64,000 nt of DNA from Candidatus Woesearchaeota archaeon. Lineage in GTDB: Archaea; Nanobdellota; Nanobdellia; SCGC-AAA011-G17; JACPIM01. Positions 8,254 to 54,277 of this stretch are shown here, piece after piece; position 1 is the stretch's first letter, and every line of letters starts with the position of its first letter. The notes beneath the pieces are model-generated. The model had not been told where the DNA came from. It saw nothing but the letters and a program-made list of their open reading frames with translations, and did not search any database. Where the stretch lies: contig CAZELK010000002.1 in NCBI GenBank assembly GCA_964513145.1, positions 65,113-129,112 of the forward strand. The letters run 5' to 3'. A program made the translations under genes and the position numbers.

Positions 8254-8285
8254 CCAGTTTTGCTTAAGCTTTTTTTGAAAGCTTA
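8254..8285 (-). repeat. Dispersed hairpin-tail element, AAGCTT type, overlapping fttA stop
   Basis: TAAGCTTTCAAAAAAAGCTTAAGCAAAACTGG on minus strand. Confidence 0.8.
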
Positions 8286-11242: not shown

Positions 11243-12408
11243 AATTTAATTTCTTTTACCCTTTCTTTTATATAATTATTTCTGGATATTTTTTTAAAAT
11301 AATCTTCAACTTTAGTAAATTCTCTTTTAATATTTGTATAGCAAGTCCCATTTTTAATAAAAACCTTTTTGTGTTTCTTTTTAAATTCCCTGACATTATT
11401 AACCATATTTTCTGGAGGTCCTTTATGTAAATAATATTCACCTATTTTTTTCTCCCTTAAAAAAAACCAAAAAATAACTTCATCTCCCCAAAACCAATTA
11501 TTGTCCTTGATTATAAAACCATTTTTAGTCAGTTCATTTTTTATAAAGTCAATTGTCTTGACAATCTTGTCTCCTATTAGGTCCTTTTTGCCTGGTAAGG
11601 GGATAATTTTTATAACCAAAGCACCAGAAGGAATTTTATTTTCTTTAAAGAAAAATCTTTCAGAAGGTTCTCGCAAATATAATTGTGATAATTTTACAAA
11701 TTTATTAAAATTATCTAAAGACAATGAAGCAGCAATATTTCTATTTTTGTCTACAGGATCAATTAATATCAAAGGTGAAACTGTTTTTGATGGATTAAGT
11801 TCAAATAACGGATTTTTTAATTTTTTATTTATATCAATAATTACCTTTGGTTTCCATTTTGCAGCATTTTTTAAAACATTTTTAAAAGATTTGTAGTAAA
11901 TAGTTAAAACTTCTAAAGCGTAACCAGAAAAACCTGAAATATATGACTCAGCCCCATATAATGAATTTGCCTTGCAAAAAGCCTTTAATAATCTAATTTC
12001 ATCCTTTAATTTGGAAAACTTTTTAACAAATTTAATATGCAAAGGGCTTAAATCAGTTACATTTTGGGCTTGTTCAGGTTTTTTAATGTCCAGAATTGGA
12101 ACAATTTCAAAAATTAAATTCCTGTAATTAATATGAAAATAATCCCTAGAACCATGCACTATATCCACATCAAACTTTTTTTTAAGCTGCTTATATAAAA
12201 TATCAGAAATATTTTTATCATAATTTTTAAATTTTGCAAAAATATCAACTTCTTTTGTTGCTTTTAGCCACGTATCTTTTGAAACTGACCCGCCAACTAT
12301 AAAGTTTACTTTTTTAATATAACTTAATTTTTTAAGAAATTCTTTCGTAATATTTTCAACTAATAATTGTTCATCTTTAGACGGCTTTATCTGAGAAATT
12401 ACATTCAT
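11233..12408 (-). CDS. cca: Class I CCA-adding tRNA nucleotidyltransferase
   Basis: GGSVSKDTWL..EVDIF, YGAESYISGFSGY, LIDPVDKNRNIAAS. Confidence 0.9.
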   Translation of the reverse strand: MNVISQIKPSKDEQLLVENITKEFLKKLSYIKKVNFIVGGSVSKDTWLKATKEVDIFAKFKNYDKNISDILYKQLKKKFDVDIVHGSRDYFHINYRNLIFEIVPILDIKKPEQAQNVTDLSPLHIKFVKKFSKLKDEIRLLKAFCKANSLYGAESYISGFSGYALEVLTIYYKSFKNVLKNAAKWKPKVIIDINKKLKNPLFELNPSKTVSPLILIDPVDKNRNIAASLSLDNFNKFVKLSQLYLREPSERFFFKENKIPSGALVIKIIPLPGKKDLIGDKIVKTIDFIKNELTKNGFIIKDNNWFWGDEVIFWFFLREKKIGEYYLHKGPPENMVNNVREFKKKHKKVFIKNGTCYTNIKREFTKVEDYFKKISRNNYIKERVKEIKLWK

Positions 12409-14250: not shown

Positions 14251-14339
14251 ATTAGATAAAAACAAAGTTCATTTATTAATATTTTTAAAAAGTGTAACTG
14301 CGCTGGCCGAGGTTTGAAATCCCGAAACTTCTTTTAGTC

Positions 14340-14365
14340 TTTGATTAAACTTTTTTGAAAAGTTT
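14340..14365 (-). repeat. Dispersed hairpin-tail element, AAACTT type, in tRNA-Gly T-arm intron
   Basis: AAACTTTTCAAAAAAGTTTAATCAAA. Confidence 0.8.
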
Positions 14366-14391
14366 GCTCGGGTCAGAGCCTCTTTACTCGC

Positions 14392-14418
14392 TTTTGATTA
14401 AACTTTTTCAAAAGTTTA
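14392..14418 (-). repeat. Dispersed hairpin-tail element, AAACTT type, in tRNA-Gly anticodon intron
   Basis: TAAACTTTTGAAAAAGTTTAATCAAAA. Confidence 0.8.
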
Positions 14419-14572
14419 TTGGCAAGGCCCAATACTAACCACTATACTACCAGCGCATCAGTAATCTTTTGTAAAACAATTATATTTAAACCTTTTTAGT
14501 CATGAGGCTTTGTTGTGGAGTCCTAAATTTATTTAGAAAGATATTTAATACAATAAAATCTAATTTATTCGT

Positions 14573-14962
14573 ATGATTTTAACAGGGATCATTGCTGGAC
14601 TCGGCTTATTAGTGTCTTTTTATGCCTTTAGAACAGAATTAAAAGTAAAGCTTAATAAAAAATACAAGGCATTTTGTGATAGAAATAATCGCATTTCCTG
14701 TTCAAAAACACTCTCAAGCAAATACGGAAATCTTTTTGGAATCCCAAATTCCTTGGCTGGAATTTTTTTCTACGCCTCTCTTCTTGTTCTTGCTTTTTTA
14801 AATATAACTAATTATATTTTTTATCTATCAATAATTGCTTTTTTAATTAGTATCTTGCTTGCATATCTATCATTTTTTAAAGTAAAAACAATATGTCCTG
14901 TTTGTATTTCGATTTATATAATAAATACAACTTTATTGATTGTATCTTATCCAAAAATATGA
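14573..14962 (+). CDS. Vitamin K epoxide reductase (VKOR) family protein
   Basis: Loop CDRNNRISC..LSSKYG and active-site CPVC in a TM helix. Confidence 0.9.
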   Translation: MILTGIIAGLGLLVSFYAFRTELKVKLNKKYKAFCDRNNRISCSKTLSSKYGNLFGIPNSLAGIFFYASLLVLAFLNITNYIFYLSIIAFLISILLAYLSFFKVKTICPVCISIYIINTTLLIVSYPKI

Positions 14963-14963
14963 A

Positions 14964-15097
14964 TGGGCCGAGAAGGATTTTCATTGCTTCTAGTTTTGTT
15001 TAAGCTTTTCTAAAAGCTTAATTTGAACCTTCGATCTAGACGGTGTAAACGTCTTGTCATTTGCAGAGTTAAAACTTAGCCACTAGACCACCGGCCC
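14964..15097 (-). tRNA. tRNA-Val(TAC) with two non-canonical introns: D-loop 20a/21 (15077-15061, 17 nt) and T-loop 59/60 (15021-14978, 44 nt)
   Basis: Acceptor GGGCCGG/TCGGCCC, anticodon stem AGACG/CGTCT with loop TTTACAC, T arm GAAGG-TTCAAAT-CCTTC after removing inserts; BHB motifs at both; CCA not encoded. Confidence 0.9.
14991..15020 (-). repeat. Dispersed hairpin-tail element, AAGCTT type, in tRNA-Val T-loop intron
   Basis: TAAGCTTTTAGAAAAGCTTAAACAAAACTA. Confidence 0.8.
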
Positions 15098-15164
15098 ACA
15101 CAAAGAAATTCTTACTTAGTCCCTATTTAAAATTATTGTTTTTTCTCAAAGCTTTTATTAAATA

Positions 15165-25918: not shown

Positions 25919-25946
25919 TTTTGATTAAACTTTTCCAAAAAGTTTA
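25919..25946 (-). repeat. Dispersed hairpin-tail element, AAACTT type, abutting mre11 start (antisense orientation)
   Basis: TAAACTTTTTGGAAAAGTTTAATCAAAA on minus strand. Confidence 0.8.
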
Positions 25947-29787: not shown

Positions 29788-30137
29788 AATAGGTGTGTTA
29801 TAAGCCAGCTTCTGTTGAATTTCCTTTCGGAAAAATTCAGGCTAACATTTTACTAAGCGTCTGTAATAGACTTGCACTAGTCAGGGCTTGCCGTTTCATC
29901 CATTCCTATGGAATGTCTTTGGGTTAACTCATTTCCATTTCAGGAAATTTCGCCATGTTCATCCTACCCATAGGGGGTCTCGTTTCTGAGCAGTTGCCAA
30001 CTTTTTCAAGTTCTTTTTTTCAAAAGTGACACTTTCACTTTCAAAAAAAGTTTTTTATAGCTTTTTCAAAAGTTTAAGTGGCTGGACTTTCCTCAGACAA
30101 GTTTAAGGCTTATCCGATAGTTAGCTGCACACCTATT
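29788..30137 (-). ncRNA. rnpB: RNase P RNA
   Basis: P1 AATAGGTGTG/CACACCTATT, CR-I GAGGAAAGTCC, GAAAC elements, CR-V AACAGAAGCTGGCTTAT; carries an AT-rich hairpin insert around 30001-30076. Confidence 0.9.
30057..30076 (-). repeat. Degenerate hairpin element inside RNase P RNA
   Basis: TAAACTTTTGAAAAAGCTAT followed by further T-run/A-run hairpins. Confidence 0.6.
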
Positions 30138-32153: not shown

Positions 32154-32184
32154 TAAGCTTTTAGAAAAAGCTTAAGCAAAAAAC
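32154..32184 (+). repeat. Dispersed hairpin-tail element after rps13 stop
   Basis: TAAGCTTTTAGAAAAAGCTTAAGCAAAAAAC. Confidence 0.8.
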
Positions 32185-32249: not shown

Positions 32250-32855
32250 ATGGGAGATCCAAAGAAAAACAGAAAAAAGTATTCAACACCTGCGCATCCT
32301 TGGCAGGCGACAAGACTTAAGGAAGAAGCAGAACTAGTAAATAATTTTGGCTTAAAAAACAAGAAAGAAGTATGGAAAATGATTTCAATTATTAAAAGAT
32401 TTAAATCTCAGGCAAAGAGTTTAATTGCCGGATATACTGAGCAGAGCGAGAAAGAAAAGAAGCAATTAATTTCTAAACTTTTTAAACTTAATCTAGTAAA
32501 TGAAAATGCAACACTTGATGATGTTTTAGGATTAAAGATAGAAAATATCTTCGAGAGAAGACTTCAGACTTTAGTTTTTAAAAAAGGACTGGCCAGAACA
32601 ATTAAACAATCAAGACAATTTATTACAAATGGGCACATTTCTGTTAATGGGAGAAAATCCAATATTCCTTCTTATTTGGTTTTAAAAGATGAGGAAGCAA
32701 AAATATCTTTTAATTTAAACTCAAAATTAAGCAATGAAAATCATCCAGAGAGATTTAAAAAGGCTATAGAAGAATTAAAAGAAGAAAAGAAACATGTGAA
32801 AGAAGAAATTGAGGGTGGAAAAAAAGAATCATTAGTTGAGGTAAAAGCTTTTTAG
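32250..32855 (+). CDS. rps4: 30S ribosomal protein uS4
   Basis: MGDPKK, ERRLQTLV, ARTIKQSRQFITNGHI. Confidence 0.95.
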   Translation: MGDPKKNRKKYSTPAHPWQATRLKEEAELVNNFGLKNKKEVWKMISIIKRFKSQAKSLIAGYTEQSEKEKKQLISKLFKLNLVNENATLDDVLGLKIENIFERRLQTLVFKKGLARTIKQSRQFITNGHISVNGRKSNIPSYLVLKDEEAKISFNLNSKLSNENHPERFKKAIEELKEEKKHVKEEIEGGKKESLVEVKAF

Positions 32856-32876
32856 AAGAAAGCTTTAGCAAAAAAC
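32844..32876 (+). repeat. Dispersed hairpin-tail element overlapping rps4 C-terminus/stop
   Basis: AAAGCTTTTTAGAAGAAAGCTTTAGCAAAAAAC. Confidence 0.8.
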
Positions 32877-40941: not shown

Positions 40942-40969
40942 TAAACTTTTATAAAAAGTTTAATCAAAA
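40942..40969 (+). repeat. Dispersed hairpin-tail element upstream of rpoD (plus degenerate copy at ~40985-41003)
   Basis: TAAACTTTTATAAAAAGTTTAATCAAAA. Confidence 0.8.
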
Positions 40970-42526: not shown

Positions 42527-42955
42527 ATGATAATAGATGCAAAAGATTTGGTATTAGGAAGACTGGCTAGTTTTAGCGCTAAACAAGCTTTGTTAGGAGA
42601 AGAAGTTACTATAATAAATGTTGAAAAAGCTGTAATTAGCGGAAGCAAAGAAGATGTTTTAGCCAAATATAAATGGAGAGATAATTTGGGCGAACCTTTT
42701 AAAGGACCTTTTATGCCAAAAATACCAATGAAATTTGTTAAAAGAGTTATAAGGGGAATGTTGTCTTATAAAAAAGGAAGGGGAAAAGAAGCGTTTAAAA
42801 GAATTAAATGCTATCCAGGAAATCCAATGAATGTCAATGGCGTAACTTTAGAAAAAGCCAAATCAACAAAATTAAATAAGAGTAATTACATAACTGTAGA
42901 TGAACTTTGCAAAGAATTAAAAAACAAAGGAAAACCAGCAAAGAAAGCTTTTTAG
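42527..42955 (+). CDS. rpl13: 50S ribosomal protein uL13
   Basis: MIIDAKDLVLGRLAS, NVEKAVISG, KRVIRGML; start reassigned to 42527. Confidence 0.95.
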   Translation: MIIDAKDLVLGRLASFSAKQALLGEEVTIINVEKAVISGSKEDVLAKYKWRDNLGEPFKGPFMPKIPMKFVKRVIRGMLSYKKGRGKEAFKRIKCYPGNPMNVNGVTLEKAKSTKLNKSNYITVDELCKELKNKGKPAKKAF

Positions 42956-42976
42956 AAAAAAGCTTTAACAAAAAAC
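42944..42976 (+). repeat. Dispersed hairpin-tail element overlapping rpl13 C-terminus/stop
   Basis: AAAGCTTTTTAGAAAAAAGCTTTAACAAAAAAC. Confidence 0.8.
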
Positions 42977-47921: not shown

Positions 47922-47948
47922 TAAACTTTAAAAAAGTTTAATCAAAAA
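47922..47948 (+). repeat. Dispersed hairpin-tail element abutting start of Cys-rich paralog 1
   Basis: TAAACTTTAAAAAAGTTTAATCAAAAA. Confidence 0.8.
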
Positions 47949-54190: not shown

Positions 54191-54277
54191 TAAGCTTTTA
54201 AGAAAAGCTTAAGCAAAACTGGCAGTCTTTAAAAAAACTTAAGCAAAAACAAACTTTTTAAGAAAAATTTCAAAAAA
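54191..54277 (+). repeat. Cluster of one full and two degenerate hairpin-tail elements after Cys-rich paralog 2
   Basis: TAAGCTTTTAAGAAAAGCTTAAGCAAAACTGG (AAAAGCTTAAGCAAAACTGG identical to the copy at 8254) then ..AAAAAAACTTAAGCAAAAAC and AAACTTTTTAAGAAAAATTTCAAAAAA. Confidence 0.75.

Follow-up and report, generated by a model that had tools for sequence, protein, structure and literature searches.

The 64,000-nucleotide stretch of Candidatus Woesearchaeota DNA analysed here (hereafter the window) carries what is very probably a functional, single-copy tRNA-Val(UAC) gene that is spliced twice, its transcription, cleavage and ligation being predicted from sequence. Two BHB introns interrupt this gene, one in the D-loop and one in the T-loop, both at non-canonical sites, and none is present in the anticodon loop. 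This reading, proposed in a preliminary description of the locus, is borne out by the parse of the spliced product and by orthologous genes.

The unspliced gene covers 134 nt on the minus strand of the window (14964-15097), in a gap between ORFs. Two inserts divide it into exons of 20, 39 and 14 nt, and its first part, the acceptor strand and the D-arm, is rich in GC. Exon 1 (15078-15097, minus strand, like all parts of the gene) contains positions 1-20a, that is, the 5' strand of the acceptor stem, U8, the 5' strand of the D-stem and most of the D-loop including G18 and G19. It is followed by intron 1 (17 nt, 15061-15077), which separates 20a from 21 in the D-loop. Exon 2 (positions 21-59, 15022-15060) supplies the 3' strand of the D-stem, an intact anticodon arm (TAC), the variable loop, the 5' strand of the T-stem and the T-loop up to A59. 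Intron 2 (44 nt, 14978-15021) lies at 59/60 in the T-loop, and exon 3 (positions 60-73, 14964-14977) brings T60, the 3' strands of the T- and acceptor stems and A73; CCA is not encoded at the 3' end. Joining the exons produces a 73-nt cloverleaf, collinear with intronless orthologues, which ARAGORN calls as tRNA-Val(tac). The anticodon arm is unbroken by a 37/38 intron, and the identity of the tRNA is given by UAC in a 7-nt loop (TTTACAC), a 5-bp stem (AGACG/CGTCT), the discriminator A73 and orthology with the Val(UAC) genes of relatives. A putative promoter element, the TATA-like box TTTTAAATA, is found 27-35 nt upstream of tRNA position 1 (15124-15132, minus strand), and comparable boxes occur at the same upstream distance in most of the 22 tRNA genes recovered in the genome. 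Seven nucleotides past the 3' end, a T5 run (14953-14957, minus strand) is likely an archaeal terminator; it overlaps the final codons of a convergent ORF (14573-14962, plus strand).

The locus was parsed with our own scanner, which walks a cloverleaf grammar along the DNA and may skip any segment whose ends form a 4-bp helix flanked by 3-nt bulges. A single solution was obtained (score 55), identical to the parse of the preliminary description. Only one other locus in the whole window scored high, a tRNA-Gly(GCC) gene (58), with a background maximum of 27 at non-tRNA loci. Since the scanner filters on the BHB, its intron census is not independent of this motif, and as a motif-free check every pair of deletions at the valine locus was enumerated under cloverleaf rules. 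The T-loop deletion was unique: 44 nt long, in five frames, all with an identical product owing to the AAAT at either end. For the D-loop, this enumeration left the boundaries ambiguous, several deletions of 15-18 nt also yielding cloverleaves, and cloverleaf rules were therefore rejected as sole arbiter at this site. The predicted boundaries are instead settled for the 17-nt intron by the BHB register together with the intronless orthologues, which invariably have T22 (...TTA TGAC...).

With the same splicing but shifted D-loop cut sites, the mature tRNA would have A22 in place of U22 and a D-stem of four perfect pairs (...GGCTA AGAC...), and the 17-nt deletion concerned does outscore the BHB-defined one in the motif-free cloverleaf enumeration. 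EndA, however, cleaves each of the two bulges at a fixed position, which in the BHB register means U22. Furthermore, all nine intronless orthologues carry T at position 22, corresponding to a U13.U22 pair in the tRNA. A mature product with A22 is accordingly very unlikely.

The motif predicted for the D-loop is a 3-4-3 BHB, GTGG CT/A ... CTGC AA/A (slashes mark the cuts), in which the central helix H is paired at 4 of 4 positions, including two G.U pairs, between an outer helix of 2 bp and an inner helix of 3 bp. In the T-loop, the motif TTCA AA/T ... TGAA AA/T has four Watson-Crick pairs in H (TTCA:TGAA), the 5-bp T-stem as outer helix, and an inner helix made of one pair, a small internal loop and then an 8-bp stem. 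The BHB strings given earlier for the two introns match these letter for letter. Each intron has two 3-nt bulges and a 4-bp helix, cutting after the second bulge nucleotide gives the correct product, and removal of both restores a canonical cloverleaf. Both motifs are canonical in shape and non-canonical in position only. At a fixed site and length in this genome, chance would produce the whole D-loop motif with a probability of 2.5e-4 and, in the T-loop, the H helix by itself with one of 8e-3. Folding placed the T-arm BHB no more than 0.5 kcal/mol from the optimum, and gave a structure other than the D-arm BHB as the minimum-free-energy fold at 37°C. The suboptimal D-arm fold, the two G.U pairs in the D-loop H helix, the interrupted inner helix of the T-loop motif and the strict-type EndA described below were counted against the reading of a twice-spliced gene.

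To follow the two introns across relatives, we used a set of 28 Val(UAC) orthologues, composed of the gene of this genome and those of 27 other genomes of the order. An intron at the same D-loop site (after nucleotide 20) is present in 15 of the 28, spread over nine families and 14 to 32 nt long; of the other 13 genes, nine have no intron, and the remaining four are interrupted after nucleotide 15 (two genes) or nucleotide 23 (two genes). Across the 15 genes, 60 of 60 cells of the H helix are paired. In three genomes the exon change from T16 to C16 is matched by a compensatory change from A to G in the intron, and the inner helix keeps its pairing although its sequence is entirely different among orthologues. 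This recurrence in 15 orthologues, with covariation, indicates a motif under selection. As far as these comparisons reach, the D-loop intron is old and its position is conserved for tRNA-Val(UAC) in the order.

The suggestion that the D-loop intron is an older insertion thus stands, given that 14 other genomes from nine families share it whereas the T-loop intron is unique to this genome. The idea that 17 nt is close to the minimum length does not hold: congeners have introns of 14-16 nt at the same site, and this genome itself contains introns of 11-16 nt, among them some of 11-13 nt in other tRNAs. Its supposed erosion is a possible reading compatible with these lengths, the versions found in the genus being the shortest (14-17 nt, as opposed to 19-32 nt elsewhere). 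We also considered, and rejected, an origin of intron 1 by decay of the hairpin repeat described below, as only low-complexity matches of 9-11 nt were obtained, consistent with chance.

All 73 exon positions are identical in four relatives (G001, G002, G003 and G188), exon 1 being the same letter for letter, and the flanking DNA is merely 73-79% identical. The MAGs of relatives in which exon 2 is unchanged are designated Candidatus Woesearchaeota or Nanoarchaeota. Intronless orthologues reach 67-71 bits with the Rfam tRNA model, and the one-intron gene of G002 54 bits. Congeners have also kept a tRNA-Gly(GCC) gene beside the valine gene. In the window this neighbour, likewise a hidden tRNA gene, lies about 500 nt downstream (14299-14456, minus strand) and has two introns, both containing the hairpin repeat: 38 nt at 37/38 (14382-14419) and 48 nt at 53/54 (14319-14366). 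Its orthologues have introns at 22/23 and 37/38 in G002 and G003, and at 37/38 alone in G001 and G008; these differing intron sets among congeners suggest fast intron gain and loss.

The unspliced valine gene was not called by ARAGORN, with or without its intron mode, nor by Rfam at the gathering threshold. Lax Rfam thresholds gave only a partial tRNA match of 14.5 bits at this locus, plus a spurious match to MALAT1. The warning that such genes are missed by standard callers is therefore true of the two that were run, ARAGORN and the Rfam tRNA model. Genome-wide, ARAGORN reported 8 tRNAs by default and 15 in intron mode, and Rfam 18 above its cut-off. If both inserts were retained instead of being spliced, the RNA would be either something other than a tRNA or a tRNA with expanded loops, a possibility that appears extremely remote. 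Its D-loop would be 25 nt and its T-loop 51 nt long, without precedent, and we know of no functional tRNA with two loops of these sizes. In addition, the BHB at the D-loop site is held by selection across families, and no other Rfam family scored above threshold at the locus.

The T-loop intron has a different distribution. It is absent from all 27 other Val(UAC) orthologues examined, whose uninterrupted T-arms provide the exact empty site, in four cases within identical exons. Scans of metagenome and genome contigs for the exact junction and for an 'insert after T60' gave no matches, and thus no second copy of the T-loop insert at the population level. Its core (14994-15019, minus strand) corresponds to one copy of a hairpin repeat dispersed in the genome, AAGCTTTT-AG-AAAAGCTT followed by the tail AAACAAAA, in agreement with the earlier remark that the body of this intron is the AAGCTT-type element. 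Over its first 28 nt, intron 2 shares about 93% identity with other genomic copies, among them those in introns of tRNA-Arg(TCG) and tRNA-Ser(TGA) and others located outside recovered tRNA introns. Using the hairpin plus an AAnCAAAA tail as search pattern, we found 48 loci in the genome: at least 10 within recovered tRNA introns, one in a long ORF and about 37 elsewhere (intergenic or unassigned). Copies within introns usually carry an extra purine-rich segment; by base-pairing with the first arm, this segment completes the inner helix of the BHB. Intron 2, and not intron 1, falls within a repeat-derived intron group in the sense of Fujishima 2010. Inspection of intron 2 by eye revealed no C or D box of a box C/D guide RNA. 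Judged from the empty sites and these repeat matches, the T-loop intron is a gain of this lineage, with one copy of the dispersed repeat as its body.

Eight copies of the repeat (AARCTTTT..AAAAGYTTAAnCAAAA) were found in the window outside the two recovered tRNA genes, at 8258-8284, 25919-25945, 32155-32181, 32845-32873, 40943-40969, 42945-42973, 47923-47947 and 54192-54218. Elsewhere in the genome some repeats form tandem pairs, and several genomic copies end directly at an ATG.

The genome is a draft of 18 contigs (978 kb, 29% GC, 98.8% complete). We rescanned it with the BHB scanner and recovered 22 confident tRNA genes, of which 19 are interrupted, by 35 introns in all; many anticodons are still missing from this motif-dependent and incomplete census. 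The introns are located at 37/38 (10 of 35), in the D-loop (9), at 59/60 (5, in Ala, His, Val and two Ser genes), at 53/54 (3) and elsewhere (8). The four other 59/60 introns have the same H helix as that of the valine gene, and the tRNA-Ala(UGC) gene shares its whole architecture. A tRNA gene with anticodon TAT (Ile, UAU) and introns at 29/30 and 37/38 was also found (G000:C1:145720-145846, plus strand); a UAU isoleucine tRNA is known from ARMAN-2 as well (PMC3239211).

Besides the Val(UAC) gene, a single other valine tRNA gene was recovered, Val(GAC) at C17:71-181, which itself has two introns; searches of the genome gave neither a second Val(UAC) nor any Val(CAC) gene. Among valine codons GTA ranks second in use (17.8 per 1000 codons), and the G34 of Val(GAC) is unable to read it. 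Such heavy use of GTA, combined with the finding of a sole Val(UAC) gene, implies that this gene is needed, and it is probably essential.

These data bear on the possibility that the locus is a fresh pseudogene, its T-loop inactivated by the hairpin repeat, and that GUA and GUG are read by a tRNA encoded elsewhere, for instance in the 1.2% of the genome that is not assembled. In favour of this scenario, none of the other 27 orthologues has the T-loop insert, this insert is a copy of a dispersed repeat, and the assembly is a draft. The scenario is nevertheless very unlikely. The insert sits in the correct 3-4-3 BHB register with an H strand complementary to the T-loop, which is not expected of a random insertion, and the same 59/60 design recurs in four other tRNAs of the genome. 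No exon position has changed relative to four other species, neither another Val(UAC) nor a Val(CAC) gene was recovered, and little of the genome is missing. We retain the reading of a functional gene spliced twice.

The genome encodes both a splicing endonuclease and an RtcB ligase. EndA is specified by one gene (188 aa; L001:1474-2040, minus strand, equivalent to G000:C7) that matches PF01974 and PF02778, with 1a79 and 3iey_A as best solved relatives. In pairwise alignments only, its residues 42-188 align without gaps to the M. jannaschii EndA, and the 6-residue Lys-rich insertion of the N. equitans alpha subunit is missing. This insertion, present in N. equitans and ARMAN-2, has been linked to broad specificity (PMC3239211, PMC5829648). 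We found no EndA paralogue or beta subunit in the genome; a weak phmmer candidate for the latter (G000:C1:128251-128742) was dropped, having no Pfam match. With neither beta or fused units nor a Lys-bearing loop insertion, the enzyme lacks the marks of broad-specificity EndA and looks like the strict homotetrameric (alpha4) type. Its gene is arranged head to head with a gene for an RNase Z-like metallo-beta-lactamase. RtcB was recognized by its match to PF01139 (G000:C6:75368-78150, plus strand). This match is split into two pieces (profile positions 1-44 and 49-426) about 1.4 kb apart, the second lying within an 879-aa open frame, and the ligase gene looks as if it contained an intein or another insertion. 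The window that contains both split tRNA genes also includes the genes for the archaeal RNase P RNA (29789-30136, minus strand; 115 bits with Rfam) and for a CCA-adding enzyme (11647-12003, minus strand; PF09249).

The following pathway can be proposed. Transcription would start from the TATA-like box and the ends would be trimmed by RNase P and RNase Z. EndA would then cut the two 3-4-3 BHBs, formed with nucleotides 15-19 of the D-loop and 54-57 of the T-loop, releasing introns of 17 and 44 nt while the acceptor, D and T stems hold the exons of 20, 39 and 14 nt together. RtcB would ligate the exons, after which CCA would be added. Motifs of canonical shape, with only their positions being non-canonical, fit a single EndA that looks like the alpha4 type. 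Even a strict enzyme could cut both introns, since each offers both bulges and a 4-bp helix.

The gene adds a new example to a known type, a well-supported assignment given that introns at 20/21 and 59/60 have been published for Crenarchaeota, Methanopyrus and ARMAN-2. Both positions are among the listed intron sites of archaeal tRNAs (PMC4090602). The closest parallel for the T-loop intron is provided by ARMAN-2, another DPANN archaeon, in which a 59/60 intron also uses the conserved T-loop in its central helix and was cleaved in vitro, and in which some genes have non-canonical introns only (2011, PMC3239211). In contrast to the three-unit epsilon2 EndA of ARMAN-2, with its extra loops, the enzyme found here is a single 188-aa protein of alpha type without the Lys-rich insertion, and the intron, 44 nt long, is built around a dispersed repeat.

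For the D-loop intron, the pre-tRNA-Glu(UUC) of M. kandleri offers a comparable case, with an intron where the D-loop ends on its 3' side, directly ahead of position 21 (20b/21), in a tRNA with several introns; this intron is spliced in vivo, the mature form having been detected by RNA-seq (Kaneta et al. 2018, PMC5829648). There, however, the motif is a relaxed HBh', the enzyme is of (alpha-beta)2 type and a canonical intron is also present, whereas the valine gene has both bulges at each site and no 37/38 intron. In Thermoproteales, genes contain up to three introns at sites including 20/21 and 59/60 (Sugahara 2007/2008; Fujishima 2010; PMC4090602), and related introns at different positions in unrelated tRNAs have been read as gain at the DNA level (PMC4090602). 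Like the members of these 'transposed' groups, intron 2 shares its sequence with introns located elsewhere in unrelated tRNAs. It differs from them in belonging to another phylum with another type of EndA (the Thermoproteales, which are Crenarchaeota, have an alpha-beta enzyme with a Crenarchaea-specific loop), in the presence of about 37 copies of the core outside recovered tRNA introns, and in the visibility of the empty site in sister species.

Hidden disrupted genes have already been put forward in print as a reason why the tRNA sets of DPANN archaea look incomplete (PMC5829648). Split genes such as this one account for part of the 'missing tRNAs' of DPANN genomes, and arguments on completeness or auxotrophy that rely on tRNA counts are unsafe in genomes of this kind. 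That so many tRNA genes are disrupted in a genome whose EndA is loop-less and alpha4-like is an apparent mismatch, and one open to a bench test.

A single gene here combines two intron ages, an old, conserved D-loop intron and a lineage-specific, repeat-made intron whose empty site is preserved in sister species, making it useful for the open question of how introns are gained in archaeal tRNA genes. We tentatively suggest, giving the idea somewhat less than even credence, that the T-loop intron is a case of intron birth caught in the act. The repeat would have inserted after the split from the sampled congeners, and the insertion would have been viable at once, because the 3' end of the repeat (TGAA) pairs with the universal T-loop TTCA to form a canonical BHB. 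If this holds, with an EndA that looks strict and alpha4-like, introns could reach non-canonical sites without a broad-specificity endonuclease, provided that each brings a canonical motif.
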